Positions 3,806-63,313 of a stretch of 64,000 nucleotides of DNA are shown one piece after another. The first letter of the stretch is position 1. Each line of letters begins with the position of its first letter. The notes beneath the pieces are model-generated. The model saw only the letters and a list, made by a program, of their open reading frames with translations, searched no databases and was not told the origin of the DNA. The position numbers and the translations under genes are program-made. The stretch covers positions 1 to 64,000 of the forward strand of contig JAFCCL010000006.1 of NCBI GenBank assembly GCA_017610205.1. Reading direction: 5' to 3'. Origin of the DNA: Candidatus Iainarchaeum sp. Lineage in GTDB: Archaea; Iainarchaeota; Iainarchaeia; Iainarchaeales; GCA-2688035.

Positions 3806-5515
3806 TTATTCCGCGCTCTTTTTAACAAATTCTAAAAATAGTTCGTCGGGGTGCAATGGTCTGCTTGTTAGTTCCGGATGGTATTGTGTTGCCATCATAA
3901 ACTTGTGTTTTGGCATTTCAAGAATTTGCATAATTGGAACCTTTGGAGCTTTGCCGCTGAACACTATGCCCTTTTCTTCAAATTGTTTAATGTAATCAGG
4001 ATTGCATTCAAACCTATGCCTAAACCTGCGCCTTATCTTTTTTGCATTGCTGTGAAGCTTTGAAGCAATTGTTCCGCCAATAACTTCAACATCTCTGCCA
4101 CCCAAGCGCATGTTTCCGCCCAATCCCTCTATTTTTCTTTGCTCTGGAAGAAGGCATACTACCGGATTTCCTGTTTTTGAATCAAACTCTGTACTGTTTG
4201 CGTCTTTTAAGTTCAAAACATTTCTTGCAAATTCAATCAATGCAATCTGGAATCCAAGACAAAGTCCAAGGTATGGAATATTATTTTCACGGCAGTATTT
4301 TGCCATAGCAATTTTGCCTTCAACACCTCTTGTTCCAAATCCACCTGGAACAATTACTCCGTTAACTCCCTTCATTTGCTTTTTTAGCAAATCTTTTTTT
4401 CCTTCAAGTCCTGTTGTGTCAATCCATTTTGCTTTTACAGGCTTGTTAAGCTTAAAGCTGCAGTGTTCAAGTGCTTTTAGTATACTGATATAGGCGTCTG
4501 AAGAACCGGTGTATTTTCCGGCAATTGCAATTAAAACAGGTTTTGCCTTTCCCTGCATGCTTGTTTTCTTTGTCCACTCTTTTAAGGCAGTGTTTCCATT
4601 TGCCTTAAATTTCTTTTCAATTTTTAATTCTTTTAAGACTGCTTCATCAAACCCTTTTTTTCTTAGAACCAATGGCAGACCATAAATGTTGCTTACGTCA
4701 TGCACTCCAAAAACGTTTTCTTTTGCAATGTTAATGTAAAGGCTCATTTTTTCTCTAATACTTTCTTTCAACTTGGTTTGACTCCTGCAAACAATTATTC
4801 CTGGCTGAATTCCCATTGCAAGCAGTCTCTTAATGCCAAGCTGTGCAGCCTTGCTTTTCTGCTCTCCTAATGAATTTGGCTCAAGGATGTAAGTGATGTT
4901 AATAAAGCAAACATTTTCTGTGCCTTCCTCATACTTTAATTCCCTCAAAGCTTCTAATGCAAACATGTTTTCATAATCGCCAACAGTTCCGCCAATTTCT
5001 ATTGGAATTACGTCTGCCTTTGTTTCCATTGCAAGCTTTCTTAGTACAAGTTTTATTTCGCCTGTAACGTGGGGAATGAATTGAACGTCCCTGCCCAAAT
5101 ACTTTCCAGTCCGCTCTTTTTCAATAATTCTTTGATAAATCTTTCCGCTTGTAACAAAGTTTTCTCCCCTCAAATTCTTGTCCAAAGCCCTTTCGTAGGT
5201 TCCCAAATCCAAATCGGTTTCGCTTCCATCATCAAGTACAAACACCTCTCCGTGCCTAAACGGGTTTAGGGTTCCTGAGTCAACATTCAAATAGGCCTCT
5301 AGCTTGATTGGCTCTACCTTCATTCCTCTGTCATTCAATAGTTTGCACAAACTGCTTGAAATTGTTCCCTTGCCAACCCCGCTTATTACAGAGCCTGTTA
5401 CTACAACATATTTTGTTTTGCCTGGCTTGTAACCTTTTGGTAAAGGTGTATAAAATTCGCCGCTAGAAGTGGACGCAATTTCGCTCAAAATGTCCTGACC
5501 CTTCATCTCCCCCAA
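3806..5515 (-). CDS. pyrG: CTP synthase
   Basis: VTGSVISGVGKG, NPFRHGEVFV, EIGGTVGD, PGGFGTRG, GLCLG and QYHPE motifs. Confidence 0.97.
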   Translation of the reverse strand: MGEMKGQDILSEIASTSSGEFYTPLPKGYKPGKTKYVVVTGSVISGVGKGTISSSLCKLLNDRGMKVEPIKLEAYLNVDSGTLNPFRHGEVFVLDDGSETDLDLGTYERALDKNLRGENFVTSGKIYQRIIEKERTGKYLGRDVQFIPHVTGEIKLVLRKLAMETKADVIPIEIGGTVGDYENMFALEALRELKYEEGTENVCFINITYILEPNSLGEQKSKAAQLGIKRLLAMGIQPGIIVCRSQTKLKESIREKMSLYINIAKENVFGVHDVSNIYGLPLVLRKKGFDEAVLKELKIEKKFKANGNTALKEWTKKTSMQGKAKPVLIAIAGKYTGSSDAYISILKALEHCSFKLNKPVKAKWIDTTGLEGKKDLLKKQMKGVNGVIVPGGFGTRGVEGKIAMAKYCRENNIPYLGLCLGFQIALIEFARNVLNLKDANSTEFDSKTGNPVVCLLPEQRKIEGLGGNMRLGGRDVEVIGGTIASKLHSNAKKIRRRFRHRFECNPDYIKQFEEKGIVFSGKAPKVPIMQILEMPKHKFMMATQYHPELTSRPLHPDELFLEFVKKSAE

Positions 5516-25890: not shown

Positions 25891-26504
25891 TTCGTGAGCG
25901 GAAAACCCATGCCTTTTAAGGCAGGGATGAAAGCAAGCCACAGCCTATTTCTCTTTTTCTTGGGTATTATTCCTCTAGCGCGGCGTGGCGCTGGCGCGCC
26001 ACTATAAGAACCGCGCTGGAAGTTTTTCAATAATGAAGCGTGATTTGGTTAGCGGAGCTTATAGCGTTTATGAATGTGTATATCCTTTAGAGTGGTGTCC
26101 TAAATATAGGTTTAACGTTTTGAGGAAAGAGTCCAGTAAGGTTGATATGGAGGCTATTTTGAAGCAGATAGCAGCAGAGCATGACAGGCATATAGAAGAG
26201 CTTGCTGTCATGCCCGAGCACGTGCATATTGTGGTGCGAGCAAAACCGAGCATGAATCTAAGTAAAGCAACACAGTTGTTGAAAGGCAGAAGTTCGTACG
26301 AGTTTTTTTGCAAGCACCCAAACATGCGTCTGAGATACAGAAAAGGGCATTTTTGGGCTCCAAGTACCTGCTATCTGACGACAGGTGTAGTAGATTTGGA
26401 TAGAACCAGAGCATATGTAAGAAATCAATCAGACATGCCCATCAAGCAACACTAGCAAACTGTGGCAACTAAGAAGCTCCGCACTTTAGTGCTAGGAGGT
26501 TCAC
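25891..26504 (+). mobile_element. IS200/IS605-family element, TnpA only (614 bp)
   Basis: Inserted 3' of TTAG and ends in GGTTCAC. Subterminal hairpins CCCATGCCTTTTAAGGCAGGG (left) and CTCCGCACTTTAGTGCTAGGAG (right); no TSD. Confidence 0.85.
26033..26455 (+). CDS. tnpA: Y1 (HUH) transposase
   Basis: WCPKYR, MPEHVH (HUH), LKGRSS, GHFW and catalytic YVRNQ motifs. Confidence 0.92.
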   Translation: MKRDLVSGAYSVYECVYPLEWCPKYRFNVLRKESSKVDMEAILKQIAAEHDRHIEELAVMPEHVHIVVRAKPSMNLSKATQLLKGRSSYEFFCKHPNMRLRYRKGHFWAPSTCYLTTGVVDLDRTRAYVRNQSDMPIKQH

Positions 26505-42009: not shown

Positions 42010-42688
42010 TGTGTGGTCTGAAAGACCCGCAGTCGTTATTTTTTTAACCTTGAATCTTTTTCTTTCTTCTATCGCGCGCGACACCGCTTGTGCAGTGCCC
42101 TTTAAATGGCGCGATAGGAGAAAAGATATAATGGTAGTTTTGAGTGGCGGTAGCTGTAAAAATCAAGGGGATACAAGAAACAACTGGGTTACGTTCATGT
42201 TCAAAACAAAGTGTGTGTTCCAGTGTTTTAGGAAGCAGTCGCATATTGATACTTGTATTGCTGCTTTTCGAGAGTTTGAAGCTCATGGCTTTGAGTTTGG
42301 TGAGATTGGTTTTGGTGGCAATCATGCACACTTTAGAGTGAATATTCCAAAGCGTTACAGTGTCGTGGTTGCTGAGATAATGTTGAAGTCCAGAAGCGCA
42401 AAAAGGATATTTGAGAATCATCCTGGTTTCAGGAAAAGGTATCCTCGTGGTTCTTTCTGGTCAGGATATGAGCATCATCAGTCTACAGGAGAGCAGAACA
42501 TGGAGCAGTCGGATGATTATATTAGAAGCCAGCAGGCACATCACAATGTGCAGGTTATAGATGACAGGCACGCACAGTTATCAGCGTTTTAAGCGCCGAG
42601 CGGGGGTACGGCAAGCCCGAACCCAAGTGAGGGCTTGACAGGGAAGCGAGGCGCAAGGGGGTTATAGGGCGCGCAGCCCCCCTATTCC
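42010..42688 (+). mobile_element. IS200/IS605-family element, TnpA only (ends approximate)
   Basis: Abrupt GC shift. A long hairpin TCTTCTATCGCGC...GCGCGATAGGAGA precedes tnpA and a GC-rich structured right end (..ATAGGGCGCGCAGCCCCCCTAT) follows it. Confidence 0.7.
42131..42592 (+). CDS. tnpA: Y1 (HUH) transposase
   Basis: FKTK, NHAH (HUH), LKSRSAK.IF..HP.FRKRYPRGSFWS and YIRSQ motifs. Confidence 0.85.
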   Translation: MVVLSGGSCKNQGDTRNNWVTFMFKTKCVFQCFRKQSHIDTCIAAFREFEAHGFEFGEIGFGGNHAHFRVNIPKRYSVVVAEIMLKSRSAKRIFENHPGFRKRYPRGSFWSGYEHHQSTGEQNMEQSDDYIRSQQAHHNVQVIDDRHAQLSAF

Positions 42689-60027: not shown

Positions 60028-60486
60028 ATGAAGTTTAAAGGTCAAGGGACAACAGAATATCTGATAATCCTTGCAGTTATAATTGTAGTTGCATTGGTTG
60101 TTGTCGGCGTAATGGGCTGGTTTCCAGGACTTGGAACAGGCATTACAGAAAGCCAGAGCAAAGCATACTGGAAAAGCGCTTCGCCAATAGCAATAACCGA
60201 CTGGAAAATCACAGGAACTGCAGCAGATGCCACATTCTCTTTACAGAATCTGACAACCGACAAAATATCGGTTACTGAGATAACAATTGATGGCGCAGCA
60301 ATTGGATTGGCAGACGTCAACATTGCAGCAGGAGACACCAACGGAAGCGTTACAGGCTCAACAGGCATTGCATGCTCAAGCGGCTCAAGCTACCAATACA
60401 ATATATCAATAAGCTATGATGTTGTAGGCGGAATTTCAGGCAAGACCGAAACAGGGCAAAAGCCATTAGTTGGAAGCTGTCCATAA
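60028..60486 (+). CDS. probable major pilin (class III signal peptide)
   Basis: MKFKG|QGTTEYLIILAVIIVVALVVVGVMG; strong GGAGG RBS, own TATA and a downstream hairpin. Confidence 0.88.
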   Translation: MKFKGQGTTEYLIILAVIIVVALVVVGVMGWFPGLGTGITESQSKAYWKSASPIAITDWKITGTAADATFSLQNLTTDKISVTEITIDGAAIGLADVNIAAGDTNGSVTGSTGIACSSGSSYQYNISISYDVVGGISGKTETGQKPLVGSCP

Positions 60487-60563: not shown

Positions 60564-60860
60564 CTAAAATATTGAAAAACCCATAAAAATAAAGTAAGCA
60601 TAGAAAAACACCTGCGCAAGAATTAATGCAGACGAAGTAAAAATTGTCGACTTCCTGTTTTTTGAAAACCTTTTAACAAAATTCAGCAATAGTACAATAA
60701 GAAAAAGAATTAATGGAAGTGAAAGAATAAAAATGTTCAACACCCACTTTTCAGGAATTCCCCAAACAAACCAAGTTGAAATTATCTTGTAGGCAAAATT
60801 TACCCCAGGCAACACAGCCAGAAAAGAAATTACTATAAAGGCAAGGTTTAATTTTTTCAT
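60564..60860 (-). CDS. small three-TM membrane protein
   Basis: 98 aa with three hydrophobic segments. Confidence 0.6.
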   Translation of the reverse strand: MKKLNLAFIVISFLAVLPGVNFAYKIISTWFVWGIPEKWVLNIFILSLPLILFLIVLLLNFVKRFSKNRKSTIFTSSALILAQVFFYAYFIFMGFSIF

Positions 60861-60899: not shown

Positions 60900-60918
60900 G
60901 CCTCAGTCCGCCCATCTT
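60900..60918 (-). repeat. copy of the 3' end of the C/D sRNA (19/19)
   Basis: GCCTCAGTCCGCCCATCTT is identical to 63251-63269. Confidence 0.9.
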
Positions 60919-60948
60919 ATTTGAAAGATGAAGATTTAATTCCATTTT

Positions 60949-61398
60949 TTAAGAGTTCTTGGATTTAACGATGTCTTTTGCTTTTTCAATGAATTTTTCC
61001 GCTTTGTCATATAACTCGCTTAGGTTTTCCTCAAACTTCACTCTTGTGACATTGTATTGAACTTCCTGTCTTAGTCCCCTCAACAAATCAAATAATGATA
61101 AGTCCTCTGAGCTGAGCATTCCTTTTTCGCTGAATTTTTCTTCCAGGTATTTCTGCAGGCAATAGTGGCTTTTCTCCTTTACTCCATGCAAATAAAGTAT
61201 TGCTCTTGCTGCATGAAAAGCCGCATTGTACATTGCTATTGCAGCCATCTCTTCCTTTTTAATGTTTATTAAATCAAAACTTTCATTCAGAAAAAATTCA
61301 GCTTGTGCAAGATCCTGCAATGCAAGCCTCTTGCTTTTAGTGGTTTTCTTGAGTAATCCTTTCTCAAAACAATCATCAACCTCAGTCAAGTTCTTCAC
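60949..61398 (-). CDS. HEPN-domain protein (MNT-HEPN module)
   Basis: YNAAFHAARAILY..G.KEKSHYC and R...QY motifs. Confidence 0.88.
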   Translation of the reverse strand: MKNLTEVDDCFEKGLLKKTTKSKRLALQDLAQAEFFLNESFDLINIKKEEMAAIAMYNAAFHAARAILYLHGVKEKSHYCLQKYLEEKFSEKGMLSSEDLSLFDLLRGLRQEVQYNVTRVKFEENLSELYDKAEKFIEKAKDIVKSKNS

Positions 61399-61939
61399 CT
61401 TCTAAGACAATTGATTTAGCCCTTATTTGCTGCAACAATTCTGTTTTCTCTTTTTCCATTAAATCAACTTTGCTTTTAGTCAACGTAATTAACTGCACAT
61501 CTCTTTTTAGCTGGTTACTCAGCTCTCTTTTGATTTGGCTTATTAAAAGCGAATCTGGCTTTTTTTTAAAATAAATTGCCAAATCAATATCACTGTCACC
61601 AGTCATTTTTCCGGTCGCAGCACTGCCAAACAAGTAAACGCCTAAAGGCCGTAACTTGACCAAGTTTTTAAATGGCCTGGTTATTGTGATTTCATGCACA
61701 AGAATAGTTCTCAGTATGCTTGTCGTTAGAGGATTATTATAATTCAGACTGAAAATTTTTCGGTTCTTTTGTTTTGCCACCACAACAATTTTTTTTAGTG
61801 CAAGCTTTGTCATTATTTTGTGAACAGTACTTGGAGCAAGACCTGTTTTTTCAGCAAGCTCTCGCAGATAGTATTTCTTATTCAAAAGAAGCTCTAATAG
61901 TCGAAATGTGCTTTCATTAAGAAAATCAATATTACCCAT
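61382..61939 (-). CDS. HTH-fused minimal nucleotidyltransferase (MNT antitoxin)
   Basis: YLRELAEKTGLAPSTV HTH and YLFGSAATG...DSDIDLAI motif. Confidence 0.9.
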   Translation of the reverse strand: MGNIDFLNESTFRLLELLLNKKYYLRELAEKTGLAPSTVHKIMTKLALKKIVVVAKQKNRKIFSLNYNNPLTTSILRTILVHEITITRPFKNLVKLRPLGVYLFGSAATGKMTGDSDIDLAIYFKKKPDSLLISQIKRELSNQLKRDVQLITLTKSKVDLMEKEKTELLQQIRAKSIVLEGEELD

Positions 61940-61950
61940 GTAATAATACC

Positions 61951-61974
61951 AAACGTTCATATATAAAAACGTTT
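61951..61974. promoter_or_regulatory. palindromic operator over the TATA of the MNT-HEPN operon
   Basis: AAACGTT-CATATATAAA-AACGTTT. Confidence 0.55.
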
Positions 61975-61996
61975 CGTTCACACAGAAAAACAATAA

Positions 61997-62015
61997 AGCC
62001 TCAGTCCACCCATCT
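61997..62015 (-). repeat. copy of the 3' end of the C/D sRNA (18/19)
   Basis: AGCCTCAGTCCACCCATCT versus AGCCTCAGTCCGCCCATCT at 63250-63268. Confidence 0.9.
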
Positions 62016-62057
62016 CTCTCGAAAAATGAAGAAAGACTTACAAGACCTTGAAAAGCA

Positions 62058-62288
62058 TTATTTTAGAAACTTAGCCAGTTCTTCAATGTCAAGGTTAGCT
62101 TGCCTTAGAATGGATTTCATTGTACCTGTTCTAATCACTTGTTTCAAAGGAATAATAACAGTAAGCTTTCTTCCGCTTGCAAATTTCCTGAGCTTTACAT
62201 GACTCCCCCTCTGCTTGACAGATTTAAAGCCAGCCTTCTCCAAAGCTTTAATTACTTCCTTTCCTGAAAGAACTGGAAACTTAGGCAC
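62058..62288 (-). CDS. hicA: HicA family mRNA interferase toxin
   Basis: SGKEVIKALEKAGF..QRGSHVKL..GTMKSILRQA. Confidence 0.92.
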   Translation of the reverse strand: MPKFPVLSGKEVIKALEKAGFKSVKQRGSHVKLRKFASGRKLTVIIPLKQVIRTGTMKSILRQANLDIEELAKFLK

Positions 62289-62490
62289 AGGCTTTCACTT
62301 CAAAAGTAGTGACAAAAGGAGCAATATCTGAAAGCTTTATGTCCTTCTTGTCTTCCAAATAGAGTTCAACAGCCTCTTTCAAATTAGCCAGAGCATCTTC
62401 TATTGAATTGCCTTGCGAAGCAACATCAAGCTCAGGGCACAAAGCAACATACTCGCCCTCTTCTTTACTAATTACTGCAGATAATCTCAA
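62281..62490 (-). CDS. hicB: HicB family antitoxin
   Basis: YVALCPELDVASQG.S.EDALANLKEAVELYLE. Confidence 0.92.
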   Translation of the reverse strand: MRLSAVISKEEGEYVALCPELDVASQGNSIEDALANLKEAVELYLEDKKDIKLSDIAPFVTTFEVKACA

Positions 62491-62631
62491 AATATCACCT
62501 AGTATATTTAATGGATAAACAGTATAAAAAAAGATTTGTTTCCCACCAATTTAACTCTAAAAATGAGCTCAGGCGTGCAATATGGTAGAAAGATAATATT
62601 TAATTGTTTAAGATGCATCATTCTGTTAAAG

Positions 62632-63231
62632 ATGACTCCGAAGAAAGCAATTAGAAAAAGAGAAGCTAGAGTAACACAAAATCTGAAAAAAACGCTTGCG
62701 AGATTAAGACCGAAGCTGAAACCTTTCTTAGCAAATCCAAAACCCATAACTGTCGAACAACTTCGAGCAGGCGACATACTATTTTTTAGGCCGAAATCTG
62801 ATTCAGCTATTATAAGAAAGTGCCTTGCATATGGACACCCGTTTTCGCACATGGCACTCTACATTGGAAATGGTAAAATGTTTAATTTGGCAAAAACCGC
62901 AAGACTGCCACTGGCCGAAACCGTGTTAGCAACTTATGGGGCACCCTTTGTTTTAAGACCGGAAATTACTAAGAGGCAAACAGAAAAAATTGCTGAAAAA
63001 GCAAAAGAGGCTGTTGGAGAAAAGCATAATAAAAAAGTAGAGAAGATGGTTCAGCTAAGCGAATTGACAAACATCGGATTCAAAAAAGCAAGAACCAAAG
63101 GATTCAACTGCACAAATGTAATATCATTTATTTTCTCAGAAGCAGGAATGGACGTGACACCAGGGGTGCATCCTCTAAGAGCCGGACCCTCACATTTCCT
63201 CCGAAACAAAAGACTCAGAAGAATAAACTAA
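62632..63231 (+). CDS. permuted papain-like NlpC/P60 (YiiX/YaeF-like) protein with basic termini
   Basis: LRAGDILFF, FSHMALYIGNG and FNCTNVI...AG motifs (His precedes Cys). Confidence 0.75.
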   Translation: MTPKKAIRKREARVTQNLKKTLARLRPKLKPFLANPKPITVEQLRAGDILFFRPKSDSAIIRKCLAYGHPFSHMALYIGNGKMFNLAKTARLPLAETVLATYGAPFVLRPEITKRQTEKIAEKAKEAVGEKHNKKVEKMVQLSELTNIGFKKARTKGFNCTNVISFIFSEAGMDVTPGVHPLRAGPSHFLRNKRLRRIN

Positions 63232-63250
63232 CCCAATAAAAATATTCACA

Positions 63251-63313
63251 GCCTCAGTCCGCCCATCTTTCTTCATTGCTTGCGCTCTGTGTCATCGTCA
63301 GTTCATCATCGGC
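63251..63313 (-). ncRNA. archaeal box C/D guide sRNA
   Basis: GCCG-ATGATGA(C)-ACTGACGATGACA-CAGA(D')-GCGCAAGCA-ATGAAGA(C')-AAGATGGGCGGA-CTGA(D)-GGC. Terminal GCC/GGC stem, 13- and 12-nt guides, TATA-like TTTAAAG ~25 nt upstream. Confidence 0.88.

Follow-up and report, generated by a model that had tools for sequence, protein, structure and literature searches.

The region considered here lies within a 64,000-nt window, namely positions 1 to 64,000 of the forward strand of contig JAFCCL010000006.1 from the Candidatus Iainarchaeum sp. assembly GCA_017610205.1. On the minus strand, at 63313-63251, it harbors an intact box C/D sRNA gene that reads, in order, GCC, box C (GATGATGA), a D' guide, CAGA, a GCGCAAGC hairpin, C' (AATGAAGA), a D guide, CTGA and GGC. 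Although the best Rfam match, sR2, reaches only 26 bits against a gathering score of 42, such families are lineage-specific, so this bears on family naming rather than on the class. Indeed, in an alignment of 22 homologues most box columns are at least 90% conserved, with some homologues carrying CCGA, CGGA or CAGA for box D; the terminal stem retains 4 predicted pairs with both sides changed in 1-6 of 22 sequences, and the hairpin pairs between D' and C' are changed on both sides in 2 and 6 of 22. The guides are 12-13 nt, and the D' box is CAGA in the window while relatives have CTGA. Less conclusively, the D' guide forms 11 of 11 Watson-Crick pairs with 16S rRNA in 5 of 6 SSU loci, and likewise in 3 of 6 LSU-flank loci. 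For the D guide no convincing target was found in 6 SSU or 6 LSU loci, nor in the window's own genome, which has no assembled rRNA.

The last 18 nt of the sRNA, AGATGGGYGGACTGAGGC, are found at 63251-63268, 61998-62015 and 60900-60917, all on the minus strand, whereas the expected number of occurrences in 100 shuffles is 0.00 (largest 0). The spacings of 1253 and 1098 bp agree with the sequence-only reading that first drew attention to the locus. That reading gave the middle copy as 18 of 19 nt; it is in fact 17 of 18 (C to T), or 17 of 19 if the preceding base is counted, while the last copy is 19 of 19 as claimed. Notably, both downstream copies are longer than had been noticed: about 27 further nt upstream, at 62016-62042 and 60918-60944, match a consensus shared by 48 cassette-side sites from 21 genomes and 8 families, giving sites of about 45 nt at 61998-62042 and 60900-60944. 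Across these sites the columns of this arm (consensus GTAAyTAA-nn-CTTCATCTTTCGGGyA) are 70-90% conserved, while the sequence further upstream is unalignable.

The repeats bound two cassettes. The first, at 62016-63250 (minus strand), forms a 1253-bp unit together with its core and ends in the arm at 62016-62042. It holds a HicA toxin homologue of 76 aa (62058-62288, minus strand; PF07927, 60.5 bits, E 1.6e-16), whose start is overlapped by 8 nt by a 69-aa HicB-like antitoxin candidate (62281-62490, minus strand) with only sub-threshold matches to DUF7387 (24.7 bits) and HicB_lk (17.3 bits). The gene assigned to NlpC/P60 in the sequence-only reading is a marginal call: the 231-aa ORF (62536-63231, plus strand) matches PF00877 at E 1.1e-4 and 22.6 bits against a cut-off of 23, and lies on the strand opposite to the sRNA. 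The second cassette, at 60918-61997 (minus strand), forms a 1098-bp unit with its core and ends in the arm at 60918-60944. It encodes a minimal nucleotidyltransferase (MNT) of the Polbeta/NTP_transf_2 type with an N-terminal winged helix (61382-61993, minus strand; PF18765 at 57.3 bits, PF01909 at 45.5 bits, and HTH_24), for which 203 aa is the longest ORF but the true start is probably the ATG near 61939, judging from a homologue in the related genome G004, and a 149-aa HEPN protein (60949-61398, minus strand; PF05168, 54.7 bits). Beyond the site at 60900-60944, the attR-like end of the array, lies the chromosomal flank, comprising a 98-aa membrane protein (60564-60860, minus strand) followed by a class III signal-peptide pilin (60028-60486, plus strand; the Pfam Class_IIIsignal match is weak).

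The arrangement is not unique to this locus. The window's own genome contains six copies of the core: the three in the window, two flanking a Fic gene on another contig and one on a third. The core occurs in 29 of 41 relatives and in 96 of 196 genomes of the order, mostly once, as the sRNA itself, while arrays occur in 8 families, the largest having 11 copies (contig C54 of genome G162). We defined 42 units from 16 genomes, in which ORFs total 10804 aa co-oriented with the sRNA against 3037 aa opposite; by our tally by cluster, about 26 of the 42 hold TA, Fic or AbiE-type genes. The same cassettes (Fic, MNT-HEPN, GNAT-HicAB, GT2) sit at different loci, in different orders and in different families; the Fic cassette, for example, occurs in 7 contexts at 43-90% aa identity. 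Furthermore, cassette proteins are 86.5-91% identical between genomes G162 and G170, whose XerA is 64% identical.

In line with the sequence-only reading, which had proposed insertion of cassettes at the guide-RNA gene by a trans-acting recombinase, relatives do not have fixed gene content. At the syntenic locus the window has sRNA-[HicAB]-[MNT-HEPN]-flank, whereas G004 has sRNA-[MNT-HEPN]-[Fic]-flank, and the homology breaks fall at the cores. The second cassette of the window is 92% identical over 1042 bp to the first cassette of the G004 locus, with homology ending exactly at 60900; the flank, which resumes there, is 85% identical over 936 bp; and the hicBA part of the first cassette is 75-83% identical to cassettes at other loci of G002 and G004. 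An empty site also exists: in G161 the sRNA is directly followed by the flank that in its congener G162 lies beyond a 10-kb array. In addition, G002 lacks the units upstream, and G115 has PurE-sRNA, 2.6 kb and then ilvD, where the type represented by G112 and G113 has about 17.8 kb. In G004, a junction at a secondary site truncates a membrane-protein gene.

Strikingly, a tyrosine recombinase does sit next to a copy of the motif in relatives. Metagenome contig L119 carries the sRNA and, 52 nt later, a 414-aa protein with PF00589 at 75.9 bits. The same clade lies next to the core in three related genomes, about 50-65 nt after it: G113 (100% identity), G125 (62%) and, as a remnant, G128 (66%, a C-terminal fragment abutting the core); all other hits in 196 genomes are at most 42% identical. 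L119 overlaps a second metagenome contig, L118, over 3442 nt at 100% identity, and L118 ends in arm+core followed by ilvD. Although this join is across two separate contigs, it yields a conjugative-like element of about 17.8 kb with a shared 24-nt block at both ends, encoding a VirB4/TraG-like ATPase, a PrgI-like protein and an AbiE-like pair. The element's left-end motif, ATGATGAnAGACT, follows only 3 of 126 distinct cores, and is not part of the cassette site. The recombinase is an ordinary integrase of a conjugative-like integrative element rather than an integron integrase.

Taken together, we consider it likely that the 3' end of this conserved sRNA gene (most of the D guide, box D and the terminal stem, 18-24 nt) is the chromosomal attachment site (attB) of this integrase, with integration duplicating the core, leaving the sRNA whole and placing an element-derived arm before the distal copy. 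The units of 0.35-2.4 kb in the window and in 15 other genomes, which carry the same arm+core at their 3' end, their own promoter-like AT-rich 5' end and no integrase, would then be non-autonomous mini-elements that accumulate head-to-tail at the sRNA gene, and at secondary copies of the core such as the herA 3' end, and are reshuffled between loci, genomes and families. That this integrase clade moves the cassettes in trans, and that they arose from full elements by integrase-promoted internal deletion, is inferred without read data that could reveal circular junctions. The window's own genome (92% complete) has no member of the clade, its best hit being 37% identical and located beside tRNA-Arg; none of the array loci examined contains any tyrosine recombinase by tblastn; and none of the three integrase-bearing genomes shows a cassette array in its assembly. 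The point of strand exchange within the core is likewise inferred, as core variants (T7, GTT, GAA/GGA) give conflicting hints and the one secondary-site junction lies in the left part of the core.

It is possible, though unlikely, that the array is only wreckage, in which full-size elements integrated in tandem and were each whittled down by ordinary deletions to a TA module plus its attR, without the cassettes ever moving as units. Full elements do exist at this site, G128 keeps a truncated integrase abutting the core, and TA and AbiE genes are typical cargo that resists loss. However, the same cassette has the same left boundary, immediately after the core, in different loci, array positions and families (Fic in 7 contexts, GT2 in 2 families, and MNT-HEPN), no integrase fragment lies in any array locus examined, the left-end motif of the element is largely absent after the cores, and cassette proteins are more similar between families than XerA is. 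We regard it as more doubtful still that cassettes loop out and re-enter by homologous or microhomology recombination between the 18-45 nt repeats with no dedicated recombinase. Direct repeats of 45 nt would suffice in principle for Campbell-type excision and insertion, and the own genome lacks the cognate integrase, but this explains neither the conservation of the arm over 8 families, nor an integrase gene 50-65 nt from the core in independent genomes, nor a junction at a site sharing only about 2 nt with the core.

Two further readings appear very unlikely. Host XerA might act on the site, as with Xer-exploiting elements or the dif modules of Acinetobacter plasmids, since the consensus has a dif-like 11-6-11 layout (CTCCTCATCTT, TCGGGC, AAGATGGGCGG), dif being 11+6+11 (PMC8371274). 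The inverted repeat CATCTT/AAGATG with its 6-nt spacer appears in the consensus, 85% of cells pair against 36-60% in slid controls, and a XerA-like gene scoring 154-168 bits was the top PF00589 hit in 7 of the 10 genomes tested (G000, G015, G161, G162, G167, G170 and G122), being seen in G004, G001 and G003 only as weaker or partial matches of 96-106 bits. Nevertheless, the sRNA shares only the right arm and nothing of the spacer, no chromosomal look-alike site exists in the own genome, although the host dif is unknown, and a dedicated integrase clade is found at the site. Alternatively, the repeat could be mainly an RNA element (a 3' UTR, terminator or guide-mimic), since the arm resembles the target of the D guide and is complementary to the D-guide copy beside it, and the sites are co-oriented with most cassette genes and followed by T-rich sequence. 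The arm is complementary to the core in two registers, both exceeding slid controls, but no covariation is measurable because the core is invariant. An RNA role could exist in addition; however, presence and absence of whole units at the cores, an empty site and an integrase-bearing element with the same ends all require recombination at these sites. Other candidate recombinases found little support. Y1_Tnp (IS200/IS605 TnpA) is present in G000 (7 matches), G004 and G170 but was not found in G162 or G015; only three pairs of the own copies showed any DNA similarity, and the ends of the one pair inspected (89% over 702 bp) are unrelated to the arm. A serine recombinase was found in only 1 of 5 genomes, and viral contigs gave 0 exact matches to the 17-nt core.

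The closest parallel is with genomic islands and ICEs integrated in tandem at the 3' end of tRNA/tmRNA genes, including integrase-less, cis- or trans-mobilisable derivatives, where a tyrosine integrase likewise lies next to the att site, the 3' part of a small stable RNA gene is duplicated as direct repeats, the gene is restored and units, some keeping only att sites, accumulate head to tail. Here, by contrast, the target is a box C/D methylation-guide sRNA gene, and the non-autonomous units are very small, numerous (up to 10 in a row) and shared across families. A 2021 review of archaeal tyrosine recombinases lists tRNA genes, intergenic sites and protein-coding genes as attB, with 0 occurrences of "sRNA" or "non-coding RNA" in its main text (PMC8371274), and we found no description of an sRNA gene as an att site in the literature searched, supplements excepted. 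Repeated, rearranged copies of C/D sRNA sequence, including MITE-like sRNA elements, are known in Pyrobaculum (Lui et al., 2018, PMC6009581), but those are duplications of the sRNAs themselves, and the main text, with 0 occurrences of "integrat", describes no element inserting at an sRNA gene. dif modules offer another parallel, being apparently small recombinase-less modules, often TA, bounded by short 11-6-11 sites and moved by a recombinase encoded elsewhere; here, however, the sites are direct repeats on chromosomes, half of each is sRNA sequence and a dedicated integrase exists.

Arrays of small, mostly co-oriented cassettes, each ending in a conserved recombination site, rich in toxin-antitoxin genes and acetyltransferases, often lacking a nearby integrase and exchanged between lineages, are also known from integrons, including archaeal integrons and CALINs (Ghaly et al., 2022, PMC9668308), a study whose main text does not mention Iainarchaeota. 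Yet no IntI or attI is present here, cassettes appear to carry their own promoters, and the site is not attC-like: as single-stranded DNA, 10 of 10 sites fold no better than shuffles (z from -1.83 to +0.98), and no Rfam hit to the sites was found at E up to 10. More tentatively, Iainarchaeales may have evolved an integron-like gene-capture platform from an ordinary integrase/att system, with the guide-RNA gene in the part of attI, the 45-nt arm+core in the part of attC, and an integrase delivered by a conjugative element shuffling in trans a pool of promoter-bearing defence, TA and surface-modification cassettes exchanged across families. Such a route from a classical integrase system to cassette arrays bears on how integrons themselves may have begun, and the shared pool is of interest in DPANN archaea, whose small genomes and episymbiotic life make gene flow hard to study. 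The strict conservation of the apparently orphan D guide might then owe as much to its role as an att site as to RNA modification, raising the question of whether an RNA gene's sequence can be held constant by mobile elements that depend on it.

Interestingly, the 5' end of the same RNA gene may be a second such platform. A second, mirror-image repeat family (SITE2) may instead be a family of paralogous small RNA genes, and no integrase was found next to it; nonetheless, SITE2 duplicates the promoter and 5' end of the sRNA gene, for which pTN3-like integration into the 5' half of archaeal tRNA genes (PMC8371274) offers a possible parallel.

On the minus strand, the sequence from 63313 to 63251 reads as GCC, box C (GATGATGA), a 12-13 nt guide, CAGA, a GCGCAAGC hairpin, C' (AATGAAGA), a 12-nt guide, box D (CTGA) and GGC. 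The pattern AGATGGGYGGACTGAGGC occurs three times in the 64-kb window, at 63251, 61998 and 60900, all on the minus strand, whereas the expected number in 100 shuffles is 0.00; the middle copy is 17 of 18 and the last is 19 of 19. A Pfam search of the units between the copies returned HicA at 60.5 bits with a weak HicB-like partner, a marginal NlpC/P60-like ORF on the other strand (22.6 bits against a cut-off of 23), a wHTH-nucleotidyltransferase at 57.3 bits and HEPN at 54.7 bits.

Although the best Rfam match to the sRNA is sR2 at 26 bits, below the gathering score of 42, homologues exist across the order. In 22 aligned copies the guide columns are nearly constant and most box columns are at least 90% conserved, though some homologues carry substituted boxes; furthermore, the terminal stem and the small D'-C' hairpin keep pairing through changes on both sides. 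The D' guide pairs perfectly (11 of 11) with 16S rRNA at GTCATCGTCAG in 5 of 6 SSU loci of relatives, the window's own assembly holding no rRNA. In contrast, the D guide (63251-63262 in the window; GATGGGCG[G/A]A), the part that is repeated, has no convincing partner in 6 SSU or 6 LSU loci, nor was a complementary site found anywhere in the own genome, despite the guide being nearly invariant across the order; it is an apparently orphan guide that doubles as an att core. Interestingly, several related genomes hold two sRNA-like copies (loci L076:4753-4935 in G162, L079:4088-5158 in G122, L080:1-955 in G052 and L008:1332-1525 in G031), of which the upstream copy has a different terminal stem and 3' end. 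G162, G122 and G052 carry arrays in the loci examined (no array was mapped for G031), and in these three the array is attached to the downstream copy, which has lost box C. This may mean that the host keeps a working copy away from the att site.

The own genome has three more copies of the core, two flanking a wHTH-Fic gene just after herA on contig C1 and one on contig C19. The HerA-like ATPase ORF of 1032 aa (C1:1970-5068) itself seems, judged by eye only, to carry an intein, as the insert begins with C and ends with HN followed by C, with a homing-endonuclease-sized middle; a core copy preceded by a C'-box-like TGATGA lies 19 nt after its stop codon. Beyond this genome, the core occurs in 29 of 41 relatives at up to 2 mismatches and in 96 of 196 genomes of the order at up to 1 mismatch, most having one copy, the sRNA itself. 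Several genomes, however, have arrays: contig C54 of G162 has 11 copies over 9.6 kb, and G170, G167, G122, G052, G015, G001-G004 and others also have arrays. Reading the contexts shows two kinds of copy, the sRNA and a cassette-end site in which the core is preceded by a conserved arm. Indeed, 48 such sites from 21 genomes in 8 families align to TGTAAnTAAnnCTTCATCTTTCGGGTAAGATGGGCGGACTGAGGC, while the sequence further upstream does not align, such that the repeat is longer on the cassette side. In a public scan, record titles name the organisms Candidatus Iainarchaeum for 5 of the 8 stretches listed, which come from 4 different records.

Between consecutive cores we defined 42 units in 16 genomes, 347-2359 bp long, plus one of 5.4 kb. 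Their ORFs run with the sRNA for 10804 aa and against it for 3037 aa, of which 1538 aa lie in the 5.4-kb unit. Clustering and Pfam searches identified wHTH-Fic in 7 units and wHTH-MNT with HEPN in 5, as well as HicAB (alone or with a GNAT), DUF4258 with an MqsA/AbrB-like protein, RHH with PemK, RHH with PIN, an AbiEii-like pair, UPF0175 with a PIN-like protein, a family-2 glycosyltransferase, a methyltransferase, VIT1 with DUF211, and small secreted or membrane proteins. By our tally, based on 35 scanned representatives rather than every ORF, about 26 of the 42 are TA, Fic or AbiE-type. Non-coding units of about 80-100 nt, rich in internal inverted repeats and each ending in its own core copy, also recur immediately after the sRNA in several genomes, like miniature cassettes without a gene (loci L038:4024-4124, L040 (flipped) 3841-3941, L117:486-582, L132:212-291, L138 and L139); the three sources scanned whole (L006, L038 and L040) gave no Rfam hit at gathering. 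In genome G008 (locus L026:1040-1530), the sRNA core and the next core are each followed by the same promoter/5'UTR stretch of about 45 nt, after which two different small secreted-protein genes follow; the repeated block there is therefore longer than the core.

Multiple comparisons provide evidence that these units move. At the syntenic locus, the window and G004 share the ABC-F gene, the sRNA and the right flank (membrane protein and pilin), yet the window has [HicAB][MNT-HEPN] and G004 has [MNT-HEPN][Fic]; the MNT-HEPN homology (92% over 1042 bp) stops exactly at the last base of the core, 60900. The Fic cassette that sits in the sRNA array of G004 lies at the herA locus in the window's genome, and also occurs in arrays of G162, G170, G122, G167 and G052. 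Furthermore, G161 has the sRNA followed directly by the flank that in its congener G162 lies beyond the 10-kb array. In G004 one array is fused to a truncated membrane-protein gene at ...ACCAT(C)|GGCGGACTGAGG, the intact gene being in the window's genome, which looks like a secondary-site event. Between G162 and G170, which belong to different families, XerA is 64% identical while the shared cassette proteins are 91% (GT2) and 86.5% (Fic) identical, although this comparison rests on a single baseline gene. Contigs that start or end exactly at the sRNA core were also seen in G056 (contigs C30, C44 and C45; loci L085, L086 and L087), G112 (C25) and G171 (C89); in G056 two different downstream sequences follow the core, a chromosomal-looking one and one with an AbiE-like pair, as expected if the sampled population is polymorphic for an insertion.

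Nothing in or beside the arrays encodes a recombinase, insofar as tblastn with the four tyrosine recombinases of the own genome hit none of the array loci searched. The own genome's integrases sit beside tRNA genes; for example, those at C18:40153-41465 and C3:179013-180362, of about 400-455 aa with C-terminal zinc ribbons, lie directly beside tRNA-Arg and tRNA-Ser and mark ordinary tRNA-targeted integrated elements. Serine recombinases are nearly absent from the genomes searched. IS200/IS605 transposases are common, with two Y1 transposase genes in the window (26063-26428 and 42188-42532, both on the plus strand) out of 7 matches in the genome; the 42188 copy belongs to an element of about 700 bp, 89% identical to one on C16, with its own end hairpins. 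However, the ends of the one similar pair of copies inspected are unrelated to the arm, and no such transposase was found in G162.

A scan of metagenome contigs with the core gave 22 loci, on one of which (L119) an intact sRNA is followed 52 nt later by a 414-aa tyrosine integrase that scores 75.9 bits on PF00589 and has a SAM-like N-domain and a zinc ribbon. Searching the 196 genomes with this protein and comparing the hits with the core positions revealed a 100% identical integrase in G113, starting 52 nt from the core; one of 62% identity in G125, starting about 63 nt from the core after an intact sRNA with the same D guide; and, in G128, a C-terminal fragment of 66% identity abutting the core. 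All other hits were at most 42% identical, with none near a core; the tRNA-linked integrases of the own genome belong to the same broad family as this sRNA-linked clade (32-37% identity). L119 overlaps a second metagenome contig, L118, by 3442 nt at 100% identity, and L118 ends in an arm+core site followed by ilvD. The two contigs together describe an element of about 17.8 kb between direct repeats of 24 nt, which holds the integrase, a VirB4/TraG-like ATPase and a PrgI-like protein, an AbiE-like pair, an ABC transporter and an IS transposase. In support of this join, a congener, G115, has PurE and the sRNA and then only about 2.6 kb before ilvD. The element's distal arm fits the cassette consensus (the L089 row of the 48-site alignment).

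In our best reading, the sRNA 3' end is an attB and the arm is element-side att sequence. The cassettes keep arm+core at their 3' end and begin right after a core, which is what a small circle with one attP-like site would give on insertion. We therefore read them as non-autonomous derivatives moved in trans by this integrase clade, in which case arrays without the integrase would be comparable to integron cassette clusters that lack an integrase. This last step is inferred, as the window's genome lacks the integrase (best hit 37% identical), no genome showed both integrase and array, and no excision products were seen, in the absence of sequencing reads. The arm is complementary to the core in two registers, with 85% and 81% of cells paired against 31-62% in slid controls, although the invariant core allows no covariation test. 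As ssDNA the sites do not fold better than shuffles, and the site therefore looks like a duplex binding site rather than an attC-like hairpin.

The system works like tRNA-gene islands with tandem accretion and, in outcome, like an integron. It does not qualify as an integron, having no IntI and no attC, but has the properties required of an integrase-mediated integrative element; relative to the known islands at tRNA genes, it differs in that the gene proposed as the attachment site encodes an sRNA. A review of archaeal tyrosine recombinases (PMC8371274) names tRNA genes, intergenic sites and protein-coding genes as targets and never mentions sRNA in its main text, while the archaeal integron paper (Ghaly et al. 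2022, PMC9668308) does not mention Iainarchaeota in its main text. The Pyrobaculum sRNA study (Lui et al. 2018, PMC6009581) describes sRNA duplication and MITE-like copies rather than integration, and further literature searches, which did not extend to supplements, found nothing closer.

Interestingly, a second repeat family, which we term SITE2, duplicates the promoter and 5' end of the same sRNA. It consists of a copy of this stretch (GCCGATGATGATCTGAC, variably complete), then AATTAGCCTGATGTGYTCAGGGTAATATAC (a 9-bp hairpin) and then a T-run, and lies in the own genome at C10:64868-64897 and 65684-65713 (just beyond the window end), C12:2260, C17:41100 and 41915, and C19:44024, as well as in loci L107 (5 copies), L108 and L109 of G004. 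At 3 or fewer mismatches it was found in 4 of 41 relatives, all in one genus (g1), and no Rfam family matches. The copies bound small units (PIN-RHH, RelE-like pairs, a 208-aa gene, and the aspartokinase-like gene at 63332-64813) and are mostly convergent with the genes; the same 208-aa gene lies between SITE2 copies on C17 of the own genome and between SITE2 and the sRNA in G003. SITE2 could be a paralogous small RNA family, or it could represent the att sites of elements entering the 5' half of the sRNA gene, as pTN3-type integrases do at tRNA genes.
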